A stretch of DNA of 64,000 nucleotides from Rubripirellula sp. (lineage in GTDB: Bacteria; Planctomycetota; Planctomycetia; Pirellulales; Pirellulaceae), in NCBI GenBank assembly GCA_965216875.1, contig OZ244207.1:1184001-1248000 (forward strand). Reading direction: 5' to 3'. This document shows positions 41,897 through 62,258 of this stretch, piece after piece (positions within the stretch are counted from its first letter, which is position 1; each line of letters starts with the position of its first letter). The notes beneath the pieces are model-generated. The model was given only the letters and a program-made list of their open reading frames with translations. It was not told where the DNA came from and searched no databases. A program made the position numbers and the translations under genes.

Positions 41897-42203
41897 TGCG
41901 CTCGACGATTCGCGATGCGATGATTCGCACGACGCGAATAAGGGAGCGGAAAAGGGGACACCGGCTATTGAAGAGAGTGAATCGATAGTGTTGACCCGCG
42001 CTTGGGAAGTCGACATCGTGCACATTGTCCAGGCACTTTCTGATAGCGCGCTGTGCGATCTCCTGGCCGTCGCGCGAGGGCTTCTTCGAACTGAGGAAAC
42101 GTCCAACGACTAAGTGTCCATCCCACCACGGTTTCGGGTGTCTGCCACGGTGGCACACTCTTGATCATGCTTGAAATGCCGCCAGAACCATCGAGATAGA
42201 GCC

Positions 42204-42383
42204 ATGAACAACCCCTACGAGATATCAACCAGCGATCACCGCCGACAACGAAACGCCTATACGGGCCGTCAGATGTTCGTGTCGTTCCTGGGTGGCACCA
42301 TCTTGGGACTGGTCATCGCGGTCCTGGGCTTCATCATCCTGATCTTGTGGTCCGCTCTTCAGACGTATCAGATCGGCGTCTAG
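42204..42383 (+). CDS. small membrane protein with NPY motif (59 aa)
   Basis: MNNPYEIS... followed by one long hydrophobic helix. Confidence 0.65.
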   Translation: MNNPYEISTSDHRRQRNAYTGRQMFVSFLGGTILGLVIAVLGFIILILWSALQTYQIGV

Positions 42384-43621
42384 TGATCGTGACCGTAGCC
42401 TGAGAGGTTGGTATCCATCCCGAGCGCCTTGCCGAGCCGGTTCATTCGACCGTATTCCTCGTCCATCCTGAAGATGTGGTCGTCGTCCACGTAGGCACGA
42501 AGCCAATTGACGCCTCTTCCCAACGGACCTGGACTGTTCTCCGCCCAGTACCCTGTGAGCTGTCCTCTAGTTGCGCCCTTCTCGCGCAATGCAGTGTAGA
42601 GCTCTTCGCCTTTGAGCCCTTCGTCGAGCAACTTGTTGATCAACGGTCCGAGTTCTTCCTCCACTGGTCGACCAAATTCGTCCCGCTCAATCAAGTCCGG
42701 CTCAAACGATCCCATGCCCAACGCCTTCGCCAACCGGCTCGTGTATGGACGAGCCATCTGAGGATTCGACTCGATCACCCCCGGGAGTAATGCCTCCATC
42801 AAACTCTGACGCCGTCCTTCAGGCGACAAACTCTGTTGCAACGCATCCAGTTTCGCTGAGGCGAGTTCACCTTCCCGCTCGGCGGTCGCTCGCTGGATTG
42901 CAAGCTCCTGCTGCCGGAGCCCAAGTGCACCCTCGTTCGCCGCGGCCTGTTGTTGAGCCCCAAACATCTGAACAGCGAGTTCTGGGCGATACGCCATCAA
43001 TGCCTGCATAAACCGGCTGGGCCGTTGGTTGGTCGATGCAATTCGCTGAGCCTGCTGCTGAGCACGGTGGGTGGGCCTGTTTGCAAGGCGACTCGCCCGA
43101 CGCGCTCGACCACGATCGCGATTTGCTTGAGCAGCTGGGGACAGCGGGCGTCGACCTCCCATGTTTAGAGCTGTTGCCAAACGGCCCGGTGGAGCTTGAA
43201 ACCCTGGCCGCATTGGAGTGGCGTCCACATAGCCTTGCAAAGGTGCTCCAACCACACTCACGCGACCATCGGCGCCAACTGTTCGCTCGTAGGTCTCGGT
43301 CTTCGCAGGTTGGACCGGACCTCGTCTATGGACGTACGCGAGATTGCTATTGGGAGTCCCTGGAGAGGTGTCGCCAGCAATGTTTGGGAGTGACGGCGAG
43401 GGCGTGTAGCTCCCGTTGCGGCCACGCGTGACGCCGTAGCCGGCGTCACGGTTTACGTTTTGCCCTATCCCGAGCAGGGAACCCAGACGCGACTGTGGTC
43501 TCGAGCTGCGACTGCCCATTCCCAGTGCGGCTCCCAGTCGTGACTGTTGTCTGCGCGGTGGTGCAGAGCTGCTCAGCAGTGATTGGCGACCTGTTGTAGT
43601 AGTCGTATCAAAGTATGGCAT
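42380..43621 (-). CDS. low-complexity protein with repeated RLxxALGMG motif
   Basis: 413 aa from MPYFDTTTTT; motif occurs about 5 times; Q/A-rich coiled-coil-like middle. Confidence 0.75.
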   Translation of the reverse strand: MPYFDTTTTTGRQSLLSSSAPPRRQQSRLGAALGMGSRSSRPQSRLGSLLGIGQNVNRDAGYGVTRGRNGSYTPSPSLPNIAGDTSPGTPNSNLAYVHRRGPVQPAKTETYERTVGADGRVSVVGAPLQGYVDATPMRPGFQAPPGRLATALNMGGRRPLSPAAQANRDRGRARRASRLANRPTHRAQQQAQRIASTNQRPSRFMQALMAYRPELAVQMFGAQQQAAANEGALGLRQQELAIQRATAEREGELASAKLDALQQSLSPEGRRQSLMEALLPGVIESNPQMARPYTSRLAKALGMGSFEPDLIERDEFGRPVEEELGPLINKLLDEGLKGEELYTALREKGATRGQLTGYWAENSPGPLGRGVNWLRAYVDDDHIFRMDEEYGRMNRLGKALGMDTNLSGYGHDH

Positions 43622-43886
43622 CGTCTTGTCCCTCTTGTTTTTTGGACGCCCATGTTTGGAACATTGAGTAGAGCTCTTCACCTCGATCGCTGGGCTGATC
43701 GGCATCACCAAGCTGCGATTCGAGTTCGGCGATCTCCTCGGGTGTGCTATTGATCATTTTGAAGCAGGTTGATTTCTCGAATGGAACACCCATCATCGAT
43801 TCGTTGCTCCACGACTCCAATGCCCTTGAGAGACGATGGAAGAACATCCGCGTCTGTTCATCACCATTGCGTACCATTTCGACCAC
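43608..43886 (-). CDS. hypothetical protein
   Basis: 92-aa ORF overlapping the start of the next gene; start uncertain. Confidence 0.55.
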   Translation of the reverse strand: MVEMVRNGDEQTRMFFHRLSRALESWSNESMMGVPFEKSTCFKMINSTPEEIAELESQLGDADQPSDRGEELYSMFQTWASKKQEGQDDAIL

Positions 43887-44077
43887 TCCATGTTTTGTGT
43901 TTCGACTGATCTCATTCTCAAGAGTTGTTGTCTGCGATCAAGCCTTCAGTTCCTATCTGTTGTTGATTTCTTGAAGTTGTCGTTTGGAAGTGTGCCACAG
44001 TAGCAGAGTCTGTGGCGGGAGGTTGGCAAGCGCACCTTCGATTCGGTAACAGCGCACATCCACAGCGAGCATTGACC

Positions 44078-44692
44078 ATGAACGAGACCACCCACGAAAT
44101 TGAAACAGGGGATCGACCTGAGCCGGATCGAACGTATTCGGAACCTCATCGCACCTGCCGTTGGTGCAACACATCGAAGCCGATAACGGAGTACCGCATC
44201 CAGTCGCGCGAGCCTGACGGCAGGGCTTATCGTTCGCACCAGTGCCGCCAGTGCCACAATCGTGTCGAGCGAGAGCGTTCAAGACGCAAACGAAAGGATC
44301 AAAGAGACCGTCGCATCCACTCCAAGTTGGCCCTCGTCGCCCGCGCCAAGTCCCAGCGCCGTTGTGTTGCCGCCCTGGCCGAGTCACTCCTCGAAGGCTT
44401 CGGGGGCGTTGAAGGCTTTGCAAAGGCTTGGACCGAAGCCATCACAGAAGCCACCGCTTGTAAGCGGATCCGAGCTGGTGAGGCTCTCGTCGTTTTCCTT
44501 CAATGGCTCGAAGAGCATCCCGAGGTAACCATGGATATCAGGACAGCGTCGGATGAGGAGCTCGAACGAGCCTACAGGGACGCGCTTGCAGCCGCTTTTA
44601 TCGAGTTTCTGCGTGATCATCGGGGAATCGCGACCCGACTGCTCGCTCAGTCAGGATTCGTTGAGGCTGAACCGTCAAACGTCGTGGAATAG
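44078..44692 (+). CDS. Zn-finger protein (CxxC...CxxC) of unknown function
   Basis: CRWC...CRQC, basic helix, FGGVEGFAKAW, TASDEELE. Confidence 0.75.
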   Translation: MNETTHEIETGDRPEPDRTYSEPHRTCRWCNTSKPITEYRIQSREPDGRAYRSHQCRQCHNRVERERSRRKRKDQRDRRIHSKLALVARAKSQRRCVAALAESLLEGFGGVEGFAKAWTEAITEATACKRIRAGEALVVFLQWLEEHPEVTMDIRTASDEELERAYRDALAAAFIEFLRDHRGIATRLLAQSGFVEAEPSNVVE

Positions 44693-44839
44693 CGACACGT
44701 CAATGAGAGCTCTCCGGCAACCATTGGGAGCCGCTTGGCTCTATGTGAATCGGCACCACGTCCAGCCGTGAGAGTACCTCCCGTTTCCCTCTCAATTGTG
44801 GTGACGTCGCCAAGCTCCTGGGCTTGAGGCAACCGCACT

Positions 44840-44854
44840 GTGCCACAGTGGCAC
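44840..44854. repeat. island palindrome GTGCCACWGTGGCAC
   Basis: Exact GTGCCACAGTGGCAC. Confidence 0.95.
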
Positions 44855-44959
44855 TTTCGCTGCCCCCTCTGCTTGGAGGGTGTTGCCGGAGGGTCCAGCG
44901 ATAATCTAAGAGGAGCCAGGTGTGCTCCAAAGAGCTTATTCACAAACCGGAGTTTCACC

Positions 44960-45358
44960 GTGCCCACGCAAGACAGTCATGACGCCTTCGCCAAGCTAAA
45001 CGCCGAAATCAAGGCGGCAGAGCATATCCTGAACAGGCTGCCTGGTAGCCGTTCCCAGAAGTGCTACGTTGAGGTTTGGGAGCAAGCGTACCTTCAATAC
45101 GGCGACGGTTGTGACGAAATCGAGACCAAGTTTTCGACCGAGTGCCTTTACGTTTTCGACGAGGGCAACAGGACGGCTGTTCCGCTACGTGAGCTTCCGA
45201 TCCTGAGCCGCGTCGCCGCAACGGAGCATGTCCCTCGCTTGTTTGATCGCGCGGTCGAGTTTGAGCAGGACGTAGCCGACCGAGCAAGCGAGGCCACATC
45301 CAAGCTCGCGGTTGCCAACCGCAAACGCAGGTCGAGTGACCTCAGAAGTACTGTTTGA
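44960..45358 (+). CDS. hypothetical protein
   Basis: GTG start after GGAG; 132 aa, helical. Confidence 0.65.
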   Translation: MPTQDSHDAFAKLNAEIKAAEHILNRLPGSRSQKCYVEVWEQAYLQYGDGCDEIETKFSTECLYVFDEGNRTAVPLRELPILSRVAATEHVPRLFDRAVEFEQDVADRASEATSKLAVANRKRRSSDLRSTV

Positions 45359-45623
45359 TTGCAACTGTAACGCAACCTGACTGTGCACTCGGACATTACC
45401 TACCTCGTTTCTAAAGCCGCGGCCTAGGCTAGCTACCGAAATCCACTTGCCCGGTGGGTGGCCGCCCTTTTTCTCTCGGGCAACTCGCATTGGGCATGCA
45501 TATGTTCTCTATAACCGAACGCGATCGGCGTTGCCAAAGTACACCCCCTGACCCGTCGCGAAGACTCGCTCACTTTCGGTGCGCCGTAGCTCCGTACTCA
45601 ACCGGCCTCTTGAGGTTGGAGCA

Positions 45624-46061
45624 ATGAGGCATGATCAGTTTGAAGAGTGGATCACGTCGCTCGTTTCGGAAGTTCGAAGGATTCACCGCCTTCTTGCCGA
45701 TAGTGTTTCGCCAGGAATTGAGGTAGCGAGAGCAGAACGCGCTGAGGATGACCTCTGCGGTCAGGCCCTGGCTCTCTTCAGGCTGCTTTCGAGGCACCGA
45801 CGCAAACTCTCGTTTGATGAGGTCGCCAAGCTCTCAGACGCCTTTCGCAACCCCTACCCAAAGCATGAAACGATCAGGCGCGCGCTCGAACGTCTTTCGG
45901 TCCAGCTTGCAGACCATGGATTCCACGTTCGTCTCTCCCGCGGGACCGCTATCCTCGTCGACCTGACCGACAAAATTCCCGACAAACTCACCGGTGTCCA
46001 TTCCGAGACATCCCAGGAACAATCAGACCACTCCATAGGAGACTCACGTCATGAGTGCTGA
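45624..46061 (+). CDS. putative winged-helix DNA-binding protein
   Basis: LFRLLSRHRRKLSFDEVAKL...ETIRRALERLSVQL...VRLSRG pattern; GGAG RBS. Confidence 0.6.
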   Translation: MRHDQFEEWITSLVSEVRRIHRLLADSVSPGIEVARAERAEDDLCGQALALFRLLSRHRRKLSFDEVAKLSDAFRNPYPKHETIRRALERLSVQLADHGFHVRLSRGTAILVDLTDKIPDKLTGVHSETSQEQSDHSIGDSRHEC

Positions 46062-46227
46062 GGCAACGCTGCTCCCCGTAACTGAACTCGAGGTCCGACA
46101 AGAGATCGCGGCGAAACTCCGCGAGCTGAAGGCGCTACGGAAGATCGCCAGGGCTCTTGGGGAATTCGAGGAGGAGAGTCATCACGCTGCACGGTCTCGT
46201 GCACTGCTCAGTGAGGTAGCCGATTAG
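46051..46227 (+). CDS. small coiled-coil protein (58 aa, below ORF-track cutoff)
   Basis: AGGAG RBS; MSAEATLLPVTELEVRQEIAAKLRELKALRKIARAL...EVAD*. Confidence 0.65.
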   Translation: MSAEATLLPVTELEVRQEIAAKLRELKALRKIARALGEFEEESHHAARSRALLSEVAD

Positions 46228-46241
46228 TGCCACTGTGGCAC
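46227..46241. repeat. island palindrome GTGCCACWGTGGCAC
   Basis: Exact GTGCCACTGTGGCAC, overlapping the last base of a stop codon. Confidence 0.95.
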
Positions 46242-46257
46242 TTTAATAGATCCATCT

Positions 46258-47700
46258 GTGGTCGAGCAGGCCCACCGGAGATCCGACAATGCCCCAAAAA
46301 AAAGGGGGCTGCGCGAGATGGTTAGCGCAGCCCCCGAGCAGTTTGATCCGACAATGCTGATACCGGAGTTTCAAATGATTATGGGTTGTGACGCAAAAGA
46401 TTCAAGCCTTGCTCCCAACTCGAGCAGCCAACTTGAATCCGAACCGGCGAAGGCCTATCAAAGGCTCAAGGTCGAGCCTGAAGGAGCTCCAGTTGGACAT
46501 CATGTTGCAGTTCATCGCGACCTGCTTGATTGGATGGAAGACCACGTACAGAACGATGACGTGCGCCATGAGCTTACGCTCTGCTTTCAGACCTACATGA
46601 GAGAAGGACAATTCCTGATCAACCAAAAGCGGTTTGGCCACGGTTTTGGCGGTACGGCGACGAAGGCTCTTCGGACAGCTCTTGGCAAGTGCCCCTTCGT
46701 CGAACGCTTGTCCGAAGGGATCCCGGGAGTATGCTCGAGCGAATACCGATTCCGGCTTCGAGCGATTTCCCGCAATTTGCGGGGCAAAACGTGGTCACCA
46801 GATAACGGTATCCTCCTGTTCTCGGTTCCTCCCGGATATTGCCGGTTGGTGCGGGTGCCTTCTGACTGGATGGCCCATCGAGCGTCTAGATGGGTTCAGT
46901 TCTGTGCTAAGCGTGGTCTTCCTCTTCCGGCTGATTTGCGTGCCGACTCCCCGCTTGCATCGGCTACCTTCGATGCGATCCGGCGCATTTGTGTTCCCGC
47001 CGTCGTCGATGCTACGGGCGTCGTGTGTGCCGAAAAGATTTCTTTCCTTCTTGAATTTCATAAGTCATTGCTTACGAAGAGGGTTCGTCGCAAGTACTGC
47101 GCCAAGGACGGCAGGACCTATCACGCGATAACCAATTGTCCAAGGGTTCTCAGACGTCAGCTGCTCCTAAATGGCGAGCCGTTGCGTGAGGCTGACCTAA
47201 GCTGCTCGCACTTCTACCTATTGGCGACCCAGATAGCTGATGTCGATGAGCGAGACCGACTGCTAGAACTCATCCGTTCGGGGCGCTTTTACGAGACCGT
47301 CGCGGAACTCTCGGGTGAAGAGTTCGTAGATCGAGCGGAACTGAAGCAGGAAATGCAACGACAGTGTTTGTTTGGGCGAGACGGGCGAATCTCGTCGCGA
47401 CCTTTGTGGCCTGCTCTACGGAAGGTCTCGCGGCAGCTCTGTAGCCTAATCCTTCGCTTAAGGCGGGGCTTCGCCAAGAAGAACGCCTCTAACTTTGCCA
47501 AGCTAATTCAACGGCTAGAGGGCCGTTTAATGGATGATGCCCACTACAAACTGATTGAAGAAGGCATTGATGGTATTCGGCTCCACGACGGGTTTCTTGT
47601 CGCTGAAAGCAGTATCGATCGCGTTGCCCAAATCATTAGAGATGCTGGCGTGAAGGTCTTCGGCGCAGAGCCCAGAATTGGGATCAAGACCGGAGATTGA
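46258..47700 (+). CDS. PolA/T7-superfamily palm polymerase without exonuclease or helicase domain (TV-Pol-like)
   Basis: DGRTYH; motif A EADLSCSH; motif B RAELKQ...LFG; IQRLE; motif C RLHDGFLV; start uncertain (46258/46318/46351/46375). Confidence 0.75.
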   Translation: MVEQAHRRSDNAPKKRGLREMVSAAPEQFDPTMLIPEFQMIMGCDAKDSSLAPNSSSQLESEPAKAYQRLKVEPEGAPVGHHVAVHRDLLDWMEDHVQNDDVRHELTLCFQTYMREGQFLINQKRFGHGFGGTATKALRTALGKCPFVERLSEGIPGVCSSEYRFRLRAISRNLRGKTWSPDNGILLFSVPPGYCRLVRVPSDWMAHRASRWVQFCAKRGLPLPADLRADSPLASATFDAIRRICVPAVVDATGVVCAEKISFLLEFHKSLLTKRVRRKYCAKDGRTYHAITNCPRVLRRQLLLNGEPLREADLSCSHFYLLATQIADVDERDRLLELIRSGRFYETVAELSGEEFVDRAELKQEMQRQCLFGRDGRISSRPLWPALRKVSRQLCSLILRLRRGFAKKNASNFAKLIQRLEGRLMDDAHYKLIEEGIDGIRLHDGFLVAESSIDRVAQIIRDAGVKVFGAEPRIGIKTGD

Positions 47701-47703
47701 ACC

Positions 47704-47822
47704 GCAAATGCTCCGGAGGAATACCGCGTCTGCGTTCCCTTGCGCGTAGCCGCGGACGCCGACGAGCGGGGCAAGAAGCCACAGCGAGCATCATCACCGA
47801 CGTTCGCGACGAGATCCTCTGA
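47704..47822 (+). pseudogene. frameshifted paralogous fragment of the 48317-48874 gene
   Basis: ANAPEEYRVCVPLRVAADADERGKKP/TASIITDVRDEIL* versus AKAPAEHRDAVVERAAEIASERDTKPTAKIIAEARDEII; 1-nt deletion. Confidence 0.7.
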
Positions 47823-47897
47823 ACGCCCAAGGTGGCCGCGGAGACGTCTCCGATAACCTATGTGCTGTGGCGATGAACACGCCAGGAAAATCAGGGT

Positions 47898-48320
47898 ATG
47901 CAAATTTGCATACCCAAACACCGAAGTTACACCGACCCACGATTCATTAATGACACTTTCAGACACGATTCCAGACAAGATGTTTCGACGAAACCTGGGA
48001 ACTCTGCATCTCCAGCAGCTTGCGCGGCTTGGTATTGGCTCGCACAGTTTGACGACAAGGGACTGGCCGACAAGTCGATCGGGATTCTCTCCGGGAGCCT
48101 AGAGGCGATGACCACATCCCCCTTCAACAAGTGCCGAGAGTCGCTGATGAACTCCCGAGCGAACAAAAGGAAGCTCACTAACGATGCCCAGCTCAAACTC
48201 CTTTGGTCGGCCTGGGAGAAAGCGAAGGCCGGTAAGACCGTGAAGGCACTTCGGCCTGTAAAGCAGATCGCATGTTGCGACGCAGCCTATTACGCCTTAA
48301 AGAGGATCCGAGATCGATGA
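47898..48320 (+). CDS. hypothetical protein, possibly a truncated phage-type gene
   Basis: 140-aa ORF coupled to the next gene by ATGA overlap; N-terminus doubtful. Confidence 0.5.
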   Translation: MQICIPKHRSYTDPRFINDTFRHDSRQDVSTKPGNSASPAACAAWYWLAQFDDKGLADKSIGILSGSLEAMTTSPFNKCRESLMNSRANKRKLTNDAQLKLLWSAWEKAKAGKTVKALRPVKQIACCDAAYYALKRIRDR

Positions 48321-48874
48321 TCAACGTTGTCCACCCAGGCAAAGTAGCCCGCCTCAAGCAGCTCGAAGGCGTCGTCGAACGAGGCAAAAAGACGTTCGTG
48401 AAAGTCGGCAACGCCTTGAAAGAGATCCGCGACCAGGAGCTGTACAAGGTCACGCACAGGAGCTTCGCAGCGTACGTGGAAGATCGGTTCGGATTTAAGC
48501 GACACAACGCGTATCACCTGATTCAGGCTGCTGAGGCTAGCGATTCTGTTAAACACGTTCAACATATTGAGAATGCTCGCCAGGCGGCTGAAGTCGCGAA
48601 GGCTCCCGCCGAGCACCGCGATGCGGTTGTCGAGCGAGCAGCCGAGATCGCTAGCGAACGCGACACCAAGCCAACAGCCAAGATCATCGCCGAGGCACGC
48701 GACGAGATCATCGGCGCCAAGCAGGGCTCACCGATCGAAGCTGCACCGCGAACCGACCCGGTAGAGGCCCTGGCGGCGATCGTTCGAACGCTTGAAACCG
48801 ATCAACTCGTTGCCATGCGGAATCTGATTGATTCAGTCCTGGGCGAGGTGAACTCAAGCGGAGGGAAGTGCTGA
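48317..48874 (+). CDS. phage-type HTH protein (DUF3102-like)
   Basis: LEGVVERGKKTFVKVGNALKEIRDQELYKVTHRSFAAYVEDRFGFKRHNAYHLIQAA. Confidence 0.75.
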   Translation: MINVVHPGKVARLKQLEGVVERGKKTFVKVGNALKEIRDQELYKVTHRSFAAYVEDRFGFKRHNAYHLIQAAEASDSVKHVQHIENARQAAEVAKAPAEHRDAVVERAAEIASERDTKPTAKIIAEARDEIIGAKQGSPIEAAPRTDPVEALAAIVRTLETDQLVAMRNLIDSVLGEVNSSGGKC

Positions 48875-48915: not shown

Positions 48916-48930
48916 GTGCCACTGTGGCAC
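48916..48930. repeat. island palindrome GTGCCACWGTGGCAC
   Basis: Exact GTGCCACTGTGGCAC. Confidence 0.95.
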
Positions 48931-48964: not shown

Positions 48965-49237
48965 ATGGACTCAACCGACAGCAGCCAGATCCGACTCGTT
49001 CGGGTCAAGGGCTACGCAAACCTTGTGATGCAGCAATACCTCGACGGGCAGTGGCGAAACATCCCTGTCGTTGAATTGTCGGGCAAAGAGATTGACGTTC
49101 CCAAGGACATCCCGCGCAAGCCACGCAAGAAGAAGGCTGCGGCGAAGCCAAAGCCGAAGAACAAACCAATGTCCAGACGCAGCCGCGTTCCAGCCGGCGG
49201 CAGCAATACGCCTCTTGGGCGGAGAAGGCTCGCGTAA
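48965..49237 (+). CDS. small protein with highly basic C-terminus
   Basis: AAGGA RBS; ...PRKPRKKKAAAKPKPKNKPMSRRSR... Confidence 0.65.
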   Translation: MDSTDSSQIRLVRVKGYANLVMQQYLDGQWRNIPVVELSGKEIDVPKDIPRKPRKKKAAAKPKPKNKPMSRRSRVPAGGSNTPLGRRRLA

Positions 49238-49387
49238 CGGGGCTGCACGCAATTTGATGGAATCGATCGGTTGAAGGGATAGTTCGTGCATTCGGTTACG
49301 GGCATACTCAAATAGTGGCTGGCACGGAAATACCTGATACAATCTTGGCGTGAAATCGTACTACCATTCGTCCTAGAGGAAGAATCG

Positions 49388-49669
49388 ATGCCGAGATTAA
49401 ACTTGAGGATCAAGCACAAGAAAATCAATTCAGAAGATCGAGGATTTCACATCAAGATTGTCGGCCCATTTAAGGCTGCCAAGGGCGTTCACTTCGAGTC
49501 AACCAATGGTACTTCTTCCATGAGGCTGCAACGATTTCGATTGGAAGAGGGCGTTCTTGAAATCAAGAGCAAGTTGCACTGCAATGTGAAGTATCTCGGT
49601 GTTTGGGTCCCCCCCTTCTCTAAGCACACGATTACGAAGGGAGGAAAAGACGTCGCAAGCTTTGAATAG
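49388..49669 (+). CDS. small basic hypothetical protein
   Basis: GAGGA RBS; 93 aa; AT-richer surroundings. Confidence 0.55.
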   Translation: MPRLNLRIKHKKINSEDRGFHIKIVGPFKAAKGVHFESTNGTSSMRLQRFRLEEGVLEIKSKLHCNVKYLGVWVPPFSKHTITKGGKDVASFE

Positions 49670-49983
49670 AGCTAACCAGTATTGGAGTTAAAGGCGATTG
49701 GAGGGGCCTGTTTTTCCTGATTGAGATCGACCGGAATCAATGCTCCATGTTGGTTCCGCGGAAATTGCTCAAGAGATTCTGCCTGGACCTTCTGTAGCTC
49801 CCGTGCGGCTCTCTGAATTGGCTAGTATTGGACAGAAGTGCCAGCAGCTAGTACCGGAATGACTGAAGTGAATCTGGCCTGCTGCTCTTCATGTGCACTA
49901 ATACACGACTCTATTCATCGGACCATTGGTGGCCGAGAGAATGTGCAGCATGCTTTATGATTGTGAGAAAAGGGGAGTCCAAG

Positions 49984-50226
49984 ATGCAATCGAAGACCAC
50001 GGGCCCGAAAGGGCAGATGCAGCTCTACGAACACTGGAGTGAGAGCGCGAGCGGCCATGTCGAGACCACCGAGATTGCGGAGCTGACCGTCGTGGACGGC
50101 AACGTCGTGCTCATCGTATCTTCGCGCACCGAGAAGTTCATTCCGGGCTCGGTTGGCGCTGCGTGGAAGAAAGAGTTCACGATCGGCGGACGGCAGTTGG
50201 CGGAATTGATTCAGAACAACACGTAA
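49984..50226 (+). CDS. small hypothetical protein
   Basis: GGGGAG RBS before ATG 49984; 80 aa. Confidence 0.6.
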   Translation: MQSKTTGPKGQMQLYEHWSESASGHVETTEIAELTVVDGNVVLIVSSRTEKFIPGSVGAAWKKEFTIGGRQLAELIQNNT

Positions 50227-50460
50227 CGAGGGCAAGTATGGGCACGTATCCCATCCAAATTCCAGTGAAGTCTTACGGTGGGAAAGACCCCAAACTCATC
50301 CGCGAATACCGCGTTTGCGGCCAGGCCGCGAACGATATTCAGGCATGCCTGAACGAACAGGCAAGGTAGCCAGCGACATACCTTTACAAACCACCAGATC
50401 GCCTAGGCAACGTAACGGAATCACATTTTTCCGCGAAGAGCCTTTGATAGGAGCCAAAAT

Positions 50461-50712
50461 ATGAGCCGCAAATGGAAACAGGTCACCGGCAAGGTGCGCG
50501 TCCAAAACGAAGAAGGGAATGAACTGGAGTGGGATGTTGTCCACGAGTTTTCCGAGTGCAAGACCATGCACGGCACGAGCGTATCAAAAAGCAGGCTGAA
50601 GGATGTGCGGAGCCCGGATGGAAGGGCGATCTACTCCCGCGATGAGGGTGAGTTTTTTTTCGCGGATGAGCCGAACTCCATCTATCGTGTGGTGGAGGAG
50701 TGGGAACTCTAG
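50461..50712 (+). CDS. small hypothetical protein
   Basis: AGGAG RBS; 83 aa. Confidence 0.65.
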   Translation: MSRKWKQVTGKVRVQNEEGNELEWDVVHEFSECKTMHGTSVSKSRLKDVRSPDGRAIYSRDEGEFFFADEPNSIYRVVEEWEL

Positions 50713-50838
50713 TCAACTAACGATTGCGGGGGAAAGCTAGGACATCACTCTACGCGTTGCATTATCACTGATTCATCCGGCGCCGCGGCGGACACATCGA
50801 CCCAATGCAGTACGCCGCTCCGTAGCGAAAGGGAGGTT

Positions 50839-51327
50839 TTGACGATCATGGTCCAAGCAAAACTCATCCAGGGCCACCTCTATTACGACTGCGGCATTCG
50901 TCAGGTCGAGGAATCGGATCCACACGTTATTGACGTTTGCACCTGGAGATACGACGGATTAATGAGAGGCGAGCGCACGTCACCAGATTGTGATCAGCCA
51001 TATCACTACCATCAGTTCACTGAGTACCGGTCCTATTTGTATGGTCGCAACAAGCCTGATTCGGAACGGCGTTATACATCCATTAGGTTTCCTTCAGAGG
51101 AGAAGGCCTTGGATCGAATGTTGGACTCCAATGCGTTCTACGTAGAGCTAACTGGTGCCTTCGAAGAGCTTGGCTTTATGGAGACATTAGCAAAGGACGA
51201 CACCTGCATGTCCTGTGGCACGCCCCATTGCGAAGCGGTCATTTCCGGGCTCGGTCACTACTACGTGCTATGTGACGACTGCTGCAAGACCGCGCTTTCA
51301 GCATTGCCCGGCCTGCGCACAGGGTAG
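50839..51327 (+). CDS. hypothetical protein with C-terminal CxxC...CxxC
   Basis: GGAGG RBS (start 50839 or 50848); CMSC...CDDC; homologous fragment at 39729 differs mostly at synonymous sites. Confidence 0.75.
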   Translation: MTIMVQAKLIQGHLYYDCGIRQVEESDPHVIDVCTWRYDGLMRGERTSPDCDQPYHYHQFTEYRSYLYGRNKPDSERRYTSIRFPSEEKALDRMLDSNAFYVELTGAFEELGFMETLAKDDTCMSCGTPHCEAVISGLGHYYVLCDDCCKTALSALPGLRTG

Positions 51328-51468: not shown

Positions 51469-51483
51469 GTGCCACTGTGGCAC
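51469..51483. repeat. island palindrome GTGCCACWGTGGCAC
   Basis: Exact GTGCCACTGTGGCAC. Confidence 0.95.
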
Positions 51484-51703: not shown

Positions 51704-54700
51704 TCAATCCTGTGCAGATTCCCTTCCTTTGGTGATGTCCCAGCCGAGATAATCCGAAAGCGAGTCCACTGTGGCATCAATCTCGTCGTTTGCAACACCA
51801 GCATGATGAGCCGCGGCCTCTATATGTTCACGTGCCACCGGCTGGGAGACGTCCCTTTGAGAGATCCAATAGAATTGGCGATCAAAATCGTCCAAAAAGA
51901 CGAAGCCTCCAAACGCCGAGTGGTTAGCGGCGGTAGCCACCCAAATACTGTTGGGGACATTGGGCAACGATGGTTCTTCTTGCAACTCTTTGCTGAACGC
52001 GCGCGTTAGCGATCCAGTTAACCCCGATTGGTAATTCCAACTTCCCATGAATCCCTTAAACCAATCTCGCCAGCCCTGAGATTTGCAGTGCTCGAAAGCT
52101 AGGCCTCTTGCATGTCGGAGGAAGCCCATGATCACCGCTCCACGAAGCTCATGACTTCGTTCAAAGGGGACGAAAAGGCGGTTCGCTGCTGGTTCCGGAG
52201 CTAGCGTGCCGTAGACATCGATCTTCGCAGAAAGGCCCAAGTCCGGGAGCCACTCTTGTCGCGTTGTACCCATGACTGCATCCCACGTATGAAGACCACC
52301 GGGTGCTTCGATACCAAACAACGAAAGCTGATACGACGACAGCATATTCGGCAGGTGGTCGCTCTGATCTAGGCAGCCTCGTTGACGCCAATGATCGAAG
52401 AGCTCCTGGAGACTGGCGTGCTGCAGTTTCGCGACTTCCTCTCGATCGTCGAACCAGAATCCTCTTGGGGCAGGCTGACTAGAAGCTACAGTCTCTATCG
52501 CCAAGTCAAGGTCGCCCTTTGCGAGGACTTCAAAATCGGAAGGTTGGACGTAATCGTCTTCATGTTGGTCTCTATTAAACGCGTCAAGAATCGTTTCTAG
52601 ACTGTCGCTAGAGTCTCGCACCTTTTCCAGCAAGACGACTAGTTCGTCTTTGTCTTTCGGAAAGGCTGGAGGCGAAACAACTCGAACGCCGTCGACGTTG
52701 CCTTCATGACATTGAGTGAATTTGCTGCTAACCAGGAGATTCCCATCCACGTCACTGGACCTGACGTGATACCTCGCGAGCTATCACCAAGACGATGGGC
52801 GCATGAGCCACCATCGTTCGAATTTGAACCTTTTGTTGAGCGGAAGCCAGCATGGACGTACTGTCTAACGTCCTCTGTGTTCGACCTTTCCCGTTACCAC
52901 GAGAACCTTCGTGGGCAGGGGGCAATCTACTTCTTGTCCGGCGAAAACGGTAAGCCCGCAATAGCAACTGGAAACCTATACCTTCGGGGAGGACGCATCC
53001 AACAATCACATTTCATCTACTCGTTGCGCAACATCATCCATCACAAGAAAGACGGTAACTTTGGTCCCAGAATAACTCGGTGGCGAATCGGACTCAGGAT
53101 CTTTAGGAGAGCAATATGCTGGAAACTCCACCAAGTCAGCTTCAGGGAGTTCCTCGATTACGAAGTATTTTGACGCGCCTTCAATCGTCATACGTAGCGG
53201 TCTGGAACCGTACTGAAATGTTTCGACAACAATTCGGTCGCCGCCGAGGAAGCAGGAAAGGAACCCAATCCCAAACTGCGAGCAGGCCTCTAGATGAATG
53301 CCCATCTCCTCCAAACGCTCGCACTCAGCCGAAAACTCAGGAGAGCGATAGAAACTCTTTCCGACTTGCATGAAGAAGTTCTCGACCTGATCAAGGGACA
53401 TTCCAATCCCGTTGTCGCGAAACTCGATTCGTGGGCCCTCGTCTGGATTGCTAGCCACATGGGGCAAGCCGCTGCCGTCCCAGACTTGGATCCGCGGTAC
53501 GTAATTGACCGGCTTCCCCTGATGGGAATGTGCCTCCGCCCGCGCTTGCTGGTAGCGGCAGGCGTCGAGCGAGTTTTGGAGCAGCTCCCGTAGGAACATC
53601 GTCTCGTCCGGGTAGAGACTCTTGTCCATCAAGAGCTTCATAATCCGTTCGTAGTCCAGCTGGAATCGGAACCCTCCTGCGACGAATCGAGGGTCGGCCA
53701 TATTCACTTGGTAGCGATCAACGATGGGCGCGAGCCTCAACTGGTACCGATCCGCCATTTCGTTTGGGAGCTCCCGAACGAGCCTAGTTGCGTCCTGCAA
53801 TTCGCGGTCGACCCAATCGAGATAGGCGTGGACCGCAACATAGTCTTCCGGAGTCTCGCAGTCAGCGATGAACTCGATCCTTTCGGTAGTAACATTGACG
53901 CCTTTGATGCTTAGGTGTTTGTTCCATTCGGCAATCGAGATCGACTCGGTGAAGTGAATTGAGTGAAAGGCCGAGCATGGAGTGCGAGTGCGATCGAAAT
54001 CTAGGATGTCACCTAGGCGTAGGCAGCAAGCAAGATATCGAAGATTGATGCGTGTATTGCCCAAGTGGTCCGCGTTGCGCATCCGCAATACGCATTGCTC
54101 TGGCTTTCGTGGATCTCGAGACTGGCGTACGCCCCAATTGTGGCTTTCGCAAAGGATGCCGATGTCCAGCGTCAATGTCGCTCCCCGAAAACGTAATCTC
54201 TCCGCAAGATGCGACTGGATGAATCTGTGTACTCGCTCTGCATGGCGTTGACGAATGAACTCAGCGAAGACCGCGTCGCGAACGCAATCTGCTTTGACCG
54301 TCTCGCCATTCCTTTCTGCCTGGTCGGCGTCATCAAGACGCCCGCGATTGTGCCGGCAATGCGACTTGTACTCGTCAGAGTCGAGGATCGCCTGTTTTTC
54401 ATCAGCCTCGGATACGAACATTCCCACATCGTGGAGCAAGATCGACAACCACTGAAAAGCTAGCTCAATCGCGTTGAGTTGGATCGACTCTGGCTCATGG
54501 CTCTGACGAGGCAGAAAGTCGTGGACATGACCAGCAACGTTGAGCAAGTGGTCGAGGTCGTGCTTTGTGTACTGTCTGAACGTATGTTGAATTCGGTCGA
54601 TGAAAGGCTCCACGACGTCCGAAACCTCGAGCACTAGGCCCTGAAGCTGCTTGACCTCCGCTCGAGTCACCTCTTCATAGTCGTGAAGGTTGTTGAACTG

Positions 54701-54742
54701 CTGAAAGAGCCTGTGACTCTCGATCGAATCTCGGAAACCCAT
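51704..54742 (-). pseudogene. HD-domain (HD-CE-like) + HSP90-like GHKL ATPase gene, interrupted by an internal inversion; 1012 aa when restored
   Basis: YTKHDLDH, LLHDVGM, ESH, RLGDILDF; LRELLQNSLDA, DNGIGM, FGIGFLSCF, GTKV; as assembled it gives a 578-aa and a 348-aa ORF. Confidence 0.82.
52658..53044 (+). other. inverted intragenic segment (387 bp; 402 bp if crossover is within GTCTTTC/GAAAGAC)
   Basis: Stop-free + strand frame RKGWRR...TLSEFAANQEIPIHV...RNIIHH joins both flanking minus-strand ORFs in frame when flipped. Confidence 0.8.
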
Positions 54743-54857
54743 GCCCGCCCCTGACGCTGCTCTCGGTGTTGCAAGTCCCGGTGGGACTGCTCGTGGGAGT
54801 ATTCTACGGAATGGTTTCTGCGCTGTCGTGGTGCCGCGGCTTGGGCCGGTGAAATGT

Positions 54858-54872
54858 GTGCCACAGTGGCAC
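54858..54872. repeat. island palindrome GTGCCACWGTGGCAC
   Basis: Exact GTGCCACAGTGGCAC. Confidence 0.95.
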
Positions 54873-55408
54873 TATTGGGCCGGAGGTAAATGAACGGTCG
54901 GTCGATGCAAACGACTTGAGTTCAGGGAGAGCCAAATTCCCGTCGGTGTCACCAACCAGGGAAATTCAGTGATTCGGCGTCGGCCATCGGAGCATCGAAT
55001 CGACAGTTGGTAAGTCGCTTAAAAACTGCCCTACATATGGCATTCAACCATTGATGCGTCGTTCCGGCTTCGCTGCCGGACGGGCTCCCCTCGGCTTGGG
55101 CCGAGGCTTCGCTACGCTCGGCCTCCACACCGGCTGCATCCATGTCCCGAAGGCACATTCGCGGCGACCATCCATGAGTCGCCGTGCCTTACGGAATTTC
55201 GTCACTCGATGCGTAGGGCGTCACCGCCCGCGCTCGCTCCGACGTGAGACATCGTCTTTTACTTAGTTGACATTCTGCGGGAATTTTGACGTGATCTCCG
55301 CTGCTCATTGGAACATCTACCGAAGTTCCGGCGGCGTGGCGACATCTTCTCCTTTGGCAACGGTTTCTACGCCCCCGCTATCCGGCACCTGCTGAGGCAG
55401 AATCAAAA

Positions 55409-56827
55409 ATGAAGCGCAAGTGTGGCGTTCGTTTACAAATTCCGATTCACGTAAAACGCTACTGCGGGGGAAGCCGAACACGAGAATCTCCAATACAATG
55501 CACTTTGCATACGACCAAACGTGAATTGAAAGCACATCTAGTGACCAGGGCTGACCGAGTATGGCCGAAACCTCGAAGCAGAAATGTGGGGTCCTTTGGC
55601 AATCTTGAACTCTACGCTGGAACTCTGTTTCTCGCGGAATCAGAGGGGACAATCACACAATCCACACTCACGTCTGATGAGAAAGGGCTAGGCCAGCGCC
55701 TACGCGGCTTACTTTTGGTTCAACGCGTGACGCCCACGACTGCGGGTGATTTGATTACTGAGCTTCAAGCTTACGAGTGGATTCAGCGTCAAGACACTTT
55801 TCCAAGAAGCTATTCATTGACACCCGATGGTGTCGCTGCAGCCCAAATTGCGAAGACTGATCGACACGGTTTCCGGCGGTTGTTGCTCATGAAAATGCAA
55901 CAACGCTTTGTAGTGCCAGGCTGGTTCGTCGATCGTTTGCACACGATAAACCCGCACGGTGGTGATGTTGTCCTTCCAGGACCACGCCCTGGTTGGCGGC
56001 CAGCAGTATGCCAACTTGCAGACGATAAATGGCGAGAAAGTCTTGAGAGTGAGGTTGCAATATCTCATGAACACAATACTGCGACGATTGATAACGCATT
56101 CCCGGTACCGCTTGACCGATGGATACGAGAGGTGAAGCGCGAGTGGGCTGATTTCAAAATTACCCGATCAAAAAGCACGACGTATGCGCCTCGTGGACGA
56201 CTTGCAAGAGCAATGAGAAGAGCCGCAATTCAGTTGCTCTTCAACAATAAACCGTTTGGATGCAGCTATCACACTTCAGATCAGTCAATGCATCCTGTTC
56301 CACCACGATCGTTCCAGTCGTGGTGCCCGCTACTGGATGCACTGGAACTGATCGGCTACACCGACGCACATCCGGATATCATGGGACGGCTTATTTTTCC
56401 ATGTGCCGCCTTTCGGCGTACCGTGAATGCAGAGGAATTTGAGCGAACGGAAATTAGATCACCGGACGCCAAAGTGTTGGTTATAAACCAACCCAAATGG
56501 TCCGAGAACATGGCTGGAGTCTTCAACAATACGCTTTGGAACGTTTATTCTCGTTTCGCAAAGAAAGTTCGGACGAGATACATTTCAGTTCAAGATGTGC
56601 GTGACGAAGTCTGCAGACAGCTGAGATTAAGCTCACTTCTGTTTGACACATTTCTTGAAAAAACCGTTCGCCATACAGCAACTCGCAAGGACGAGACCGG
56701 AGGTATTATGATTGCACTTGAAAGTGATTTACAACCAAAGCAACAAACTGGTAGCGGTCTCCTGCGGCGTCCGGTCTACATGGATGGAATTGCTCACTCC
56801 TTGATATCAGTATCTGTAACCCAATAA
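55409..56827 (+). CDS. unknown protein with wHTH-like regions; gene 1 of operon
   Basis: LITELQAYEWIQ...YSLTPDG and YISVQDVRDEVCRQLRLSSLLFDTFL; true start may be GTG 55541. Confidence 0.75.
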   Translation: MKRKCGVRLQIPIHVKRYCGGSRTRESPIQCTLHTTKRELKAHLVTRADRVWPKPRSRNVGSFGNLELYAGTLFLAESEGTITQSTLTSDEKGLGQRLRGLLLVQRVTPTTAGDLITELQAYEWIQRQDTFPRSYSLTPDGVAAAQIAKTDRHGFRRLLLMKMQQRFVVPGWFVDRLHTINPHGGDVVLPGPRPGWRPAVCQLADDKWRESLESEVAISHEHNTATIDNAFPVPLDRWIREVKREWADFKITRSKSTTYAPRGRLARAMRRAAIQLLFNNKPFGCSYHTSDQSMHPVPPRSFQSWCPLLDALELIGYTDAHPDIMGRLIFPCAAFRRTVNAEEFERTEIRSPDAKVLVINQPKWSENMAGVFNNTLWNVYSRFAKKVRTRYISVQDVRDEVCRQLRLSSLLFDTFLEKTVRHTATRKDETGGIMIALESDLQPKQQTGSGLLRRPVYMDGIAHSLISVSVTQ

Positions 56828-56843
56828 CAACCAAGCGAAGACC

Positions 56844-58223
56844 ATGACAAATCCGTTGCTGCGACGTGGCAAGGAAATGCCGATTGACAAGTCTGCTCGC
56901 TACGCGAAGCTTGGACTTACCGATAACCCGTTTCCTGCAGAACCGACCGTCTCGCCAGATCATCCTGATCCACGTCGGAATGGGAGCATATATTGCGAGA
57001 CACTTCACGAAGATAAAATGCAGAGTTTTGAATCTCTGCTTATCGCACGATCCGAAGGTCCAACGGTTCGACCTCTCGTTTTTCTGATGGATCACACCAC
57101 GGCACGAGGCCGCGGAATTGGAAAAACTGCGTTTCTAAATAGACGACAGAATGAAATTTTGCGGGACTTTGGAAGCGCGGCTTCGCGAGGCGACGAAGTT
57201 GTGTTCGCCGTTCACATCATTCCTCCGGTGAATCCAGAATGCAGAAAGTTTTGGGAACTCACTCGCCTAATCTGCGATCGCTTGATTGATCGAAATGTCA
57301 TTCTTCAAGCAGTGTGCCGTCTTCGGGCCACATATCCCAAGATGCCAGAAACCGTTTTTGAGGAAGTTGGTGAAATAGATGAGTGGCCAGAGACTATTGG
57401 AAGCGATGACTGGCTGCGAGAACGTCGAGTTGACCGACATGAGCTAAATCGCCACGTTAGACAGCAACTCTACAAGGCGGGCGTGCGTGACATGGTTGCT
57501 GACAAAATAGCCGCCAACGGAAACAATCGTGCGGTACTACGGTCATGGTTGTTCTCGAGCATGAAAATCACGACCTGGCGCAAGGAGGGGCCGCAAATCG
57601 TATTTGACGACTTTGTTAAAGTATTCCGAGCTGCTGGCTTTACGCGAGGATTGCTGTTGATCGACGAAATGGAGAAGATCGTAAGGCCGCAGAACTCGAC
57701 GGAACGGCGCAATTTTGTGGAAAGCCTAAGGTACTTTCTAATTGATGGAGACTGTGAAGCAGCCCGAACTGGGTTTTACGGAACCGTACTGACGATTCAC
57801 CCAGGAATCCAAGAGCTCTTACTTCAGCATTGGCAGGTCACGGGCCTGGATCGGTCCGCTCCACTTCATGAGCCAGACGTAAAACAGAATGAGATTTCAT
57901 TTGGTCCATTGAGTCGTGAGCATGCAGATTTGTTAGTACAGGAATATTTAGGCCATTATGGAAAAGATACTGCATCGACGGGAGTATCGCCTTTCACGAA
58001 GGAGGCAATTGACGCTGCACTAGTTAAGTCTCGGCACGTGCCTGGGCCGATGCTGAACCTCTTGTTCAATGCAATAGAAAGAGCGGCAGAAAGAGGTGTC
58101 GAGAGTATTGACGGGCCTTTTATTGAACAGCTTTACGACGAACGAAATCAGCATGGAGAAGCCCTCGTTCAGCCCGATCAGCTTCCTGCTCCACAGACAC
58201 TCCTGATGGATGAAGAAGATTGA
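56844..58223 (+). CDS. P-loop ATPase (AAA+-like); gene 2 of operon
   Basis: GLTDNPF, Walker A ARGRGIGKT, Walker B LLLIDEME, lid-like PFTKEAIDA...PGPML. Confidence 0.88.
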   Translation: MTNPLLRRGKEMPIDKSARYAKLGLTDNPFPAEPTVSPDHPDPRRNGSIYCETLHEDKMQSFESLLIARSEGPTVRPLVFLMDHTTARGRGIGKTAFLNRRQNEILRDFGSAASRGDEVVFAVHIIPPVNPECRKFWELTRLICDRLIDRNVILQAVCRLRATYPKMPETVFEEVGEIDEWPETIGSDDWLRERRVDRHELNRHVRQQLYKAGVRDMVADKIAANGNNRAVLRSWLFSSMKITTWRKEGPQIVFDDFVKVFRAAGFTRGLLLIDEMEKIVRPQNSTERRNFVESLRYFLIDGDCEAARTGFYGTVLTIHPGIQELLLQHWQVTGLDRSAPLHEPDVKQNEISFGPLSREHADLLVQEYLGHYGKDTASTGVSPFTKEAIDAALVKSRHVPGPMLNLLFNAIERAAERGVESIDGPFIEQLYDERNQHGEALVQPDQLPAPQTLLMDEED

Positions 58224-58657
58224 CTGACGAAGGATCGCCACTTGATTTTAGATTGCTGTCAGAGCGGGCCGTGACCGATTCTTTGATCGAATCGAAAGAC
58301 GCCGATTCGTATGGATCGCTGCGAGTTTGTCCTATTGGTCGCCTACTTTTTGTCGTCGAAGGAATAAGAAAAAGCGCAAACACTGCATCCGGGTTAAACG
58401 AAATACGAGAAGGGCGGACCGACTTTCACAGCATTCAAGCGTCTGGCGGCTTGTTGGTTGCTGGCGTGACCTCTCAGGATGTTTGCGATCAAATGTTTCA
58501 GCCCGAAGACGACTATGAATCCTGCAGTATATCCGAGAAAGTCTTTGGACGCGGTCTCTCTCCAGATGTAACGACCGATTTGCTCGCACTCGCATCGTTT
58601 GATCGAAAATTCGACGCGGAAACGACGCGTCAATACGAAGAGGCTAGTGATGCGTGA
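58220..58657 (+). CDS. acidic hypothetical protein; gene 3 of operon
   Basis: TTGA overlap with the ATPase stop; overlaps the PIN gene start. Confidence 0.7.
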   Translation: MTDEGSPLDFRLLSERAVTDSLIESKDADSYGSLRVCPIGRLLFVVEGIRKSANTASGLNEIREGRTDFHSIQASGGLLVAGVTSQDVCDQMFQPEDDYESCSISEKVFGRGLSPDVTTDLLALASFDRKFDAETTRQYEEASDA

Positions 58658-59171
58658 CCTAGTTTTCGATGCGGATCATCTGCCTGAGCTTCTTGGCCAG
58701 TATTTTGATCCCACCGGCGTTAACAGAGGATATGGAGCATTCGCCCCCTCAGACGCGTTTTCAAGGCCGCTCGCTGTTGCACTAAATCAAATATTGGCGG
58801 ACTGGCGAACGTGTATTTCCACTGACACCCTACCTTCTTCGCTAGTCGTTATATCCACATTCGCTTTTATTGAGCTTGGCAGAAAGTGGGACCAGATGGT
58901 TGACGGGCGATTTAGTCCGAGCCAGTGTCGTGCTTTCACGGCTCAGCCGCCAACGTGGGTGAGTATCGCTCCGCTCGATGAGGATTTGCTACCTAGTTAT
59001 TGTGACGTACCTCAGGCCGTCACACTCGGCAACGGAGATACCGTTCCAATTGAATGGACAGACGCCGTCCACGTAGCAACAGTTCTTTCAAGGGAAGAGA
59101 GCACACTCTTGATCTCTGGCGATCAAAGGCTCTCGTGTATTCCAGATATTGCACATCGAGTAATGACATAG
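58650..59171 (+). CDS. PIN-domain ribonuclease; gene 4 of operon
   Basis: LVFDAD, AFIEL, WTDAVHVATV, LISGDQRL: the four acidic PIN positions. Confidence 0.82.
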   Translation: MRDLVFDADHLPELLGQYFDPTGVNRGYGAFAPSDAFSRPLAVALNQILADWRTCISTDTLPSSLVVISTFAFIELGRKWDQMVDGRFSPSQCRAFTAQPPTWVSIAPLDEDLLPSYCDVPQAVTLGNGDTVPIEWTDAVHVATVLSREESTLLISGDQRLSCIPDIAHRVMT

Positions 59172-59601
59172 ACCTACATATAGACTCACGGCTCTTTTGC
59201 GAACGAGAAGGATGCCTCACAATTTCAGACGGGAATCCCAGCTGCGTTTCCCCCTGTCTACCATTCCGGTCCATTGTTTCAGTTGAGGTTTATTGCTACG
59301 AAGATCGACTTTGAACGATCGCCGCAATGATTTCTTTGGTCGCTTCGTCCAGAGTGGATCACGACTGCGAAACGATGCGTAAAGAGGCATCCAAGTCGTC
59401 CGCCGAGCGGGCAGCGCCACTTATCGCCGGGCAAAACTGCATGATTCCCAACGATTCAGAAGATTGTATCGTTTCCGTCGGGTGACGAACCTATCGCTGC
59501 GGTGACAAATGCTCCGGTGGCCGACACCGAAGCGAGTTCGCCAGAAGCCGATATGACTTCGGCTGGACAAACCGAAGCAGTCACTCATGCCGCTGAATCA
59601 C

Positions 59602-59616
59602 GTGCCACTGTGGCAC
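59602..59616. repeat. island palindrome GTGCCACWGTGGCAC
   Basis: Exact GTGCCACTGTGGCAC. Confidence 0.95.
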
Positions 59617-59635
59617 AGAATCGACCGAGCCAGCC

Positions 59636-59914
59636 TCATCGTGTCGCGGCCAGCGCGTCAATCACTTGATCCGGACGGAACCTCCTGCAGGTGCCGATTT
59701 TGATCGACGGGACCTCCTCATTGCGGACGAGCTGTTGGAGCTTCGACCCACTAATCCCAAGCCGTCTAGCCATCTCATCAGCGTCAACGAGGAAGTGCTC
59801 ATCTGGCTCCCGGGCGTCGGTCTGGTCGCGCCGTCGCTCGATCTCGTCGCAGACCATTGAGACGAACTGGTCGATCTCGACGCCCTGAAGGAAGATCTGC
59901 TGTCCTGTTGCCAT
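59636..59914 (-). CDS. excisionase-like HTH protein (HTH_17 type)
   Basis: LVDADEMARRLGISGSKLQQLVRNEEVPSIKIGTCRRF; AAGGAG RBS. Confidence 0.85.
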   Translation of the reverse strand: MATGQQIFLQGVEIDQFVSMVCDEIERRRDQTDAREPDEHFLVDADEMARRLGISGSKLQQLVRNEEVPSIKIGTCRRFRPDQVIDALAATR

Positions 59915-60059
59915 CACTAGCTCCTTGGTACACGGTGGCTCGTACTTGCACCGACCGATCAAGCGATGATCTCACAGTGTCGTTGCAGGTAGTTTATCGG
60001 TGAAGCCTCCGTACCGGCCGGGAAATCAGATTGGATGGTGGGGCTTGGCCGAGGCAACC

Positions 60060-60074
60060 GTGCCACAGTGGCAC
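60060..60074. repeat. island palindrome GTGCCACWGTGGCAC
   Basis: Exact; extends to 19 bp CCGTGCCACAGTGGCACGG. Confidence 0.95.

Positions 60075-60915: not shown

Positions 60916-62258
<1,343 letters not shown>

Follow-up and report, generated by a model that had tools for sequence, protein, structure and literature searches.

What reads a short palindrome that recurs between the genes of a single integrated element, and with what outcome, is the question raised by a 64,000-nucleotide stretch of the chromosome of Rubripirellula sp. (Planctomycetota, Pirellulaceae; assembly GCA_965216875.1, contig OZ244207.1, positions 1,184,001 to 1,248,000), hereafter called the window and numbered from its first letter. 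The window contains a 20.3-kb element (41876-62204) integrated at tRNA-Arg in this Planctomycete chromosome, the host genome of which is designated G000, and the 15-bp palindrome GTGCCACWGTGGCAC is dispersed along it. A preliminary description made from the letters of the window had interpreted the copies either as recombination sites for cassette exchange or as dispersed loading or silencing sites of a DNA-binding protein. The second branch turned out to be the best reading, and the first went unsupported. The palindromes are very probably recognition sites rather than crossover sites, and sequence comparison tentatively suggests, as a reading that is quite possible if short of probable, that a helper phage supplies a dimeric helix-turn-helix (HTH) protein for which they act as KorB- or parS-like docking sites.

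The palindrome and its confinement to the element

The site has a 7-1-7 layout, with two arms around one central base that is A or T in all seven exact copies. A pattern search recovered these copies exactly where they had been reported (44840-44854, 46227-46241, 48916-48930, 51469-51483, 54858-54872, 59602-59616, and 60060-60074), together with both reported near copies, starting at 42142 and 43992 and carrying two mismatches each. The claimed restriction to the island extends to the whole genome, since a search of all 8,264,643 bp with any central base returned seven exact copies, every one of them in the element. A single 1-mismatch copy sits outside it, and no half-sites at any other spacing from 0 to 9 occur in the 8.26-Mb genome. 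A second-order Markov model predicts 0.015 copies per genome and 4e-5 in the element.

The scan of the genome and its relatives that the preliminary description had called for showed no enrichment in the core chromosome. The 15-mer occurs 0-2 times per genome across 300 genomes of the same family, as does a reversed control, and the 13-base core reaches at most 6 copies per genome among 400 family genomes, on separate contigs where these are listed. A repetitive extragenic palindrome would have many copies across the host chromosome, where no exact copy lies outside the element; because of the genome and family counts, the site is neither such a repeat nor a host motif. Two further candidates were rejected. 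The host parS reading was dismissed, the canonical parS cluster being absent from the genome and arrays being absent from the family genomes. Sigma-54 promoters have consensus -24 and -12 elements, and the TGGCAC half fits the former, but by eye a GC at -12 is present in one site only.

All nine sites, near copies included, are non-coding in an element that is 78% coding by our own gene calls (chance about 8e-7), one of them sharing one base with a stop codon. The position between genes and the bracketing of modules described earlier both hold. The copy at 46227 lies directly 5' of the replicase reading frame, that at 51469 between convergent cargo genes, that at 54858 between divergent cargo units, that at 59602 20 bp past the excisionase stop, and that at 60060 between the divergent excisionase and integrase units. 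The near copy at 42142-42156 (CTGCCACGGTGGCAC) stands 48 bp before a 59-aa membrane-type open reading frame (ORF), and the one at 43992-44006 lies 72 bp upstream of a Zn-finger gene. The orientation of the sites in the window is mixed, and three are followed by TTT. The palindrome is a real feature and is under selection.

Module exchange in a sister element

A sister element of about 96% identity is held in run X5, from a separate study. In it, 46356-47832 (replicase), 47978-48497, and 49229-50796 are replaced by other sequence, and 54993-59511 (a four-gene operon) is not covered. All nine sites fall within the blocks common to both elements; the comparison places the sites in shared blocks and, its 349 differences being unlisted, does not imply their letter-by-letter identity. 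None of the 12 block ends lies inside a site, the nearest being 91, 97, 115, 121, and 138 bp off. Five of the 12 are less than 150 bp from a site, which is above random (p about 0.02), and the median distance does not differ clearly from random (p about 0.08). These distances indicate that module exchange takes place close to the sites, within the conserved backbone containing them, and not at the sites themselves.

Cassette exchange at the palindromes would account for the bracketing of modules, for the excess of nearby block ends, and for the differing gene order of distant relatives. The alignment of related islands proposed in the preliminary description nevertheless showed that homology does not break at the palindromes. 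Sites of tyrosine and serine recombinases (dif, attC, lox type) have a crossover spacer several bases long between their two arms, and the 7-1-7 layout has no such spacer. No joint at a site is listed for the run from the same sample, and no circles or inversions joined at sites are listed for the contigs of four runs, nor was an excision joint seen in assembled contigs, which drop rare forms; runs X6 and X7 yielded short low-depth pieces only. In addition, 17 active sites would be expected to destabilize the 38-kb phage described below. Recombination sites are thus a highly improbable reading. A hairpin promoter or priming site for the element polymerase was rejected as well, given that the sister element swapped its polymerase and kept the surrounding blocks, and that the examined part of the same phage is without a polymerase homologue.

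Related elements and variants of the site

Relatives of the element were found through the replicase in 14 of 400 family genomes (and at two loci in another search) and through the Zn-finger gene in 21 of 400. Many are tRNA-adjacent, and they draw on one gene pool with varying order. Searches with the polymerase returned no loci in viral contigs and one short locus in metagenome contigs. Palindrome arrays were scored in 21 regions, with limits set by eye and five Markov controls each, the highest control score being 5. Five regions exceeded the controls: the window (17), G382 (12), G396 (10), G077 (7), and G128 (6). Four of the 20 other candidate elements thus carry an array of their own above all Markov controls. 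The remaining 16 regions did not, including G284, with three degenerate TGCCAC-C-GTGGCA sites, and G345, with one copy.

The variants are GTGACA-NNN-TGTCAC in G382, CTGACA-NNN-TGTCAG in G396, types of CTGCCAC-S-GTGGCAG in G077, and CTCCACGTGGAG in G128; a variant among the relatives reads CTGACAC-S-GTGTCAG. The G396 variant has five copies in its genome, all within the element. That of G382 has 18, of which 4 are on the element contig, 13 on a 7.7-kb contig, and 1 elsewhere, and the 7.7-kb contig has 36 bases in common with the end of the element contig. On this smaller contig (L540, G382:C412, 712-7531), 13 GTGACA-NNN-TGTCAS sites, several about 70 bp apart, surround a decayed ParB-like HTH fragment.

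Within an element, the site sequence changes in concert at every copy, and positions are partly kept. The site upstream of the Zn-finger gene is retained in G000, G396, and G077, and that before the gene slot preceding the replicase in G000, G396, G284, and G345. Concerted change at kept positions points to a protein that reads the sequence. The elements with TGCCAC-N-GTGGCA have a DUF3102-like gene (G000, G345), a ParB-TopoVI fusion gene (G077), or a ParB-HTH gene (G284); since the core stands beside differing DNA-binding genes, it does not follow that gene slot. Upstream of the Zn-finger gene at locus L012 (12363-12440), three different palindromes crowd into 80 bp, one of them built of parS-like halves in reverse order.

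Phages carrying the site or similar sites

A scan of IMG/VR identified 55 stretches with the exact 15-mer, and 15 copies lie on one contig, G401. This contig is 38 kb long, 75% complete, and belongs to a tailed phage with terminases; its copies, 15 exact and 17 of the core, lie for the most part where genes meet and have A/T-rich flanks as in the window. Around the window site at 48916, 26 of 28 bases match a G401 site. One G401 site precedes, by about 26 bp, a gene for a ParB-like protein with GHRRY and NQLARRN motifs, which matches ParB-like PHROGs (E 1e-8) and aligns at 53% probability to the ParB of a prophage resident in the host genome. The DNA of G401 has no similarity to that of the element beyond the site and its flanks, and no spacer-like match between G401 and the host genome was found beyond the sites and two short hits.

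The resident prophage is likewise tailed and 38 kb long and is integrated at tRNA-His (G000:C1:2677250-2715400, L461-L463). It holds all six genome copies of the parS-like GTTTCCNNGGAAAC and two 1-mismatch copies. Its palindrome has the form GTTTCC(GC/GT)GGAAAC, with GTTTCCGCGGAAAC as the candidate pair for its ParB. Of its sites, one falls within the 5' end of a gene that clearly encodes ParB and one precedes a sigma-like gene. The only PF02195 matches in G000 are those at C1:1.70 Mb and 2.71 Mb.

Relative to transcription, the centre is CAG in 13 of the 15 sites of G401 (p 0.007, by our own strand assignments and with one ambiguous site omitted), consistent with a role in RNA or with binding in one orientation. 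RNA hairpins with a 6-bp stem and a 3-nt loop could weakly terminate transcripts, mark points of processing, or be bound by a regulator that recognizes RNA. Such hairpins would also agree with the TTT after three window sites, with the variation between elements, which keeps base pairing, and with the unrelated phage G417 (30% GC), where the junctions of late genes hold five dispersed GTGCCAC-S-GTGGCAC sites with the same arms, set between tracts of A and T in the manner of intrinsic terminators. A terminator, however, does not depend on an exact sequence, and here seven copies match letter for letter; a consensus scan called no site a terminator; the sites stand between divergent and convergent genes alike, in mixed orientation in the window; and both near copies break the pairing. 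The hairpin explanation is therefore improbable. A serine-recombinase-like gene is present in G417 (L544, L545), a tailed phage.

Phages might also supply a reader of another kind, such as a sigma-like HTH protein, a LexA-type domain, or an HTH_36 initiator with iterons of the same sequence. The sigma-like gene of G401 is located between two sites, that of the resident prophage is preceded by one, and tandem copies occur inside a putative initiator gene in G120 and in several viral contigs. Region 4 of sigma factors binds non-palindromic DNA, however, no HTH_36 initiator was seen in the examined part of G401, and iterons are clustered whereas these sites are dispersed, so that a reader of this kind is distinctly improbable. 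In the G120 case (L213, G120:C39, 1174-2406), the HTH_36 initiator-like phage gene contains tandem GTGCCAC repeats and two full palindromes, and the similar tandem arrays of the other viral contigs are again inside putative phage initiator genes.

Candidate readers of the sites

In the proposed mechanism, the palindromes would be double-stranded DNA docking sites that act like KorB operators or dispersed parS, and the reader would be a dimeric HTH protein, most likely provided in trans by a helper phage. A reader in trans is invoked because the element encodes no ParB, and one of ParB or KorB type is favored because G401 and the resident prophage each pair a site array with a ParB or ParB-like gene. 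The orphan ParB-like protein of the phage would be the first candidate. When the helper phage infects, this protein, bound or sliding at gene junctions, could control how the excision, replication, and cargo units are expressed; alternatively, the sites might titrate it. Protein binding, the identity of the reader, the helper relationship, and the outcome are what we infer here. None of the 28 ORFs in the element and its flanking DNA matched a ParA-type protein, and G401 was not specifically searched for one. A self-contained ParB-parS system is thus not what the element contains, and it may instead work in the mode of a KorB operator or an SGI1-type mimic.

Several observations weigh against a ParB-like reader from a helper phage. 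No protein of ParB fold was found among the element ORFs. The ParB-like protein of G401 is divergent, with PF02195 undetected and no PDB match. Two more candidate readers are encoded by G401, namely the sigma-like HTH protein between two sites, the recognition helix of which is nearly identical, and a LexA DNA-binding domain. ParB-like genes of the G401 type occur at 78 viral loci, or 71 after removal of 7 duplicates, and none of the other 70 has an array (scores of 2-5 versus 16 for G401, many loci being short and scored without shuffles). Homologues in five family genomes have no array either. No array of the G396 variant was found in viral contigs (at most 2 copies per contig), and none of the G077 variant was present among the matches listed. 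The same arms in the unrelated G417 mean that site sharing can be convergent. Hints at the host of G401 are weak (57% GC; a terminase with a 25% match to a Pirellulaceae prophage). The prophage site is absent from the element and the element site from the prophage; the resident prophage uses another site, and this genome therefore holds no matching helper.

The persistence of the sites in a genome without a matching phage would suit a reader encoded by the element itself, namely the 45624 protein, the 44078 Zn-finger protein, the excisionase, or the 60408 protein, binding the sites and silencing the element in a stoperator-like manner. The genes of all four are in blocks common to the sister element, the Zn-finger gene is preceded by a site in three elements, and in G382 the 17 variant copies on two small contigs are accompanied by no phage structural genes that could be seen. 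On the other hand, G401 has the same site, yet tblastn of the element proteins against the examined 21.6 kb of G401 gave no match. The Zn-finger proteins of G396 and G077 are 60% identical and their sites differ, whereas those of G000 and G077 are 32% identical and the core is shared. No repressor family was matched among the element proteins, which gave weak HTH signals only. An element-encoded reader is accordingly unlikely.

The DUF3102-like HTH protein (48317-48874, plus strand), one of the binders named in the preliminary description, was rejected as reader of the 15-mer since its homologues carry their own palindrome, of another class, right after the HTH codons. Each gene of the family has one such palindrome of 16-18 bp, always single-copy. 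Its 8-bp arms are perfect in seven of the eight loci where the pattern matched (15 examined), and the window copy (about 48546-48563) pairs in 7 of 8 bases. Loci L250, L251, L465, L467, L471, L472, and L474 embed palindromes of this kind, as does the window. The peptide encoded by the internal palindrome varies with the recognition helix in six database homologues. From these genes, we infer that the 48317 protein probably reads its internal palindrome and not the 15-mer, and a natural protein-site code in DUF3102-like HTH genes is possible. The single-sequence fold of the protein is poor (pLDDT 55). Phage ParB-like genes have similar linker peptides by eye, and an 'AATVAE' peptide of G333, considered as a site, was rejected.

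Taken at its broadest, docking of a helper protein would describe an undescribed Planctomycete satellite family with loading sites for the orphan ParB-like clamp of its helper, the copies being switched together on a change of helper and the element sensing, titrating, or borrowing the clamp. This fuller version is possible but doubtful.

Other features of the element

The attachment (att) site is a 21-bp direct repeat of the 3' end of tRNA-Arg(ACG), with two copies genome-wide. The left copy is at 41876-41896, and the right one (62184-62204) is contained in the tRNA gene (62183-62258, minus strand). A tRNA-Met gene is located at 9301-9375 on the plus strand of the window. The gene at 42380-43621 (minus) encodes a 413-aa Q/G/R-rich protein without a family match that is common to related elements, with 22-31% identity among several of them; in composition it resembles virion ejection proteins. 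Upstream of it is a 92-aa ORF (43608-43886, minus) with no Pfam match. The Zn-finger protein (44078-44692, plus; PHROG E 1e-6), a marker of the family, combines an EndoVII/HNH-type N-terminus with a helical C-terminus. It is possibly small-terminase-like, and its C-terminal part scores 0.86-0.87 to viral clusters, including a DUF5681 cluster at 0.86, as a lead only. The small 45624-46061 protein (plus) has a possible winged HTH, its IclR HTH match (E 0.2) being below the cut-off.

The replicase/primase (46258-47700, plus) has a family-A polymerase fold, the Foldseek search with its predicted structure matching family-A DNA polymerases (E 1e-4 to KlenTaq and T7 DNA polymerase). Phage satellites with A-family primase-polymerases are described (PMC10061031), TV-Pol reportedly being one such enzyme. 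Just 3' of the replicase gene is a perfect 22-bp palindrome, GGGTATGCAAATTTGCATACCC (47894-47915), and homology to the sister element restarts around it, at 47832-47978.

Among the cargo genes, 53006-54742 (minus) encodes an HD-CE domain plus an HSP90-like ATPase (PF24391, E 7e-48). The 3' end of a cargo gene (51209-51327) has a 91% identical copy at 39729-39847, 2 kb outside the left att repeat. The non-coding stretch 55033-55377 has a 77% identical copy at G000:C1:644172-644541 and broke a contig in run X4. The low-GC four-gene operon (55409-59171, plus) is a candidate defence module. It received no Pfam, PHROG, or PADLOC assignment besides one weak match to a BrxC/D-type P-loop ATPase, its earlier label of 'PIN operon' is without Pfam or PADLOC support, and PADLOC gave no match for 10 cargo proteins. 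The right end comprises an HTH_17 excisionase (59636-59914, minus) and a tyrosine integrase (60916-62211, plus; PF00589, PF13102). An integrase, an excisionase, att repeats, and a replication gene of its own were thus found, and the element ORFs, many of which had no match at all, gave no sign of a capsid, tail, large terminase, or ParB. Set beside the known features of phage-inducible chromosomal islands (PICIs), the anatomy of the element looks like that of a phage satellite.

Comparison with known systems

The literature search turned up no paper on either the site or this family of elements, nor one joining 'phage satellite' and 'Planctomycet', supplements lying outside the search. The earlier statement that no described system has such a site is too strong, as KorB and its operators, the parS mimics of SGI1, and the stoperators are described parallels. 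What emerges in outline is a Pirellulaceae family of elements integrated at tRNA genes, along with concrete candidate pairs of protein and site: GTGCCACWGTGGCAC for the protein of G401, GTTTCCGCGGAAAC for the ParB of the resident prophage, and the internal palindromes for the DUF3102-like proteins.

The OB operators are dispersed over the plasmid RK2. KorB is described as a clamp of the ParB family capable of long-range repression from its operator, a palindrome built around one central base pair (PMC11790492). The site of the element shares the single central base and differs in sequence and length (15 versus 13 bp); moreover, the element is without a ParB/KorB gene, and the candidate phage protein is a divergent, ParB-like orphan. 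In cluster A mycobacteriophages, many near-identical short stoperators, mostly off promoters, are read by the immunity repressor of the phage (PMC6550527). Like the stoperators, the sites of the element are numerous, short, near-identical, and mostly away from promoters, their motif varies from one relative to the next, and their orientation is biased; unlike the stoperators, they are palindromic, and the element has no recognizable repressor.

Like PICI- and P4-like satellites, these elements are tRNA-integrated, 9-20 kb long, and equipped with an integrase, an excisionase, a replicase of A-family fold, and cargo, with no capsid or large terminase. Unlike them, they have Planctomycete hosts, a conserved Q-rich gene, and element-wide palindromes. 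Orphan proteins of ParB-CTPase fold are described as common in prophages, mostly without a known DNA site or role (PMC12704722), and both G401 and the resident prophage encode orphan proteins like these. No cognate sites were seen for the orphans of that study, in the main text of which 'palindrom' does not occur. If docking of a phage ParB-like protein is true, such orphans would gain a cognate site and a function.

A described precedent for such an arrangement is SGI1, which has ParB-binding mimics of the dispersed parS (14 copies) of its helper, an IncC plasmid (PMC10954446). Shared with SGI1 is the plan of a parasitic, integrated element bearing copies of a palindrome that is also scattered over a helper, here a putative one; unlike SGI1, which has 2 copies and a plasmid helper, the element has 7-9 copies and its putative helper is a tailed phage. 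A further difference is that the resident prophage has another site, and in G401, which has the same site, no ParA was seen, none having been specifically searched for. If the helper link holds, it would represent a novel means by which a satellite exploits its phage, and parS mimicry of the SGI1 type would extend from plasmids to phages.

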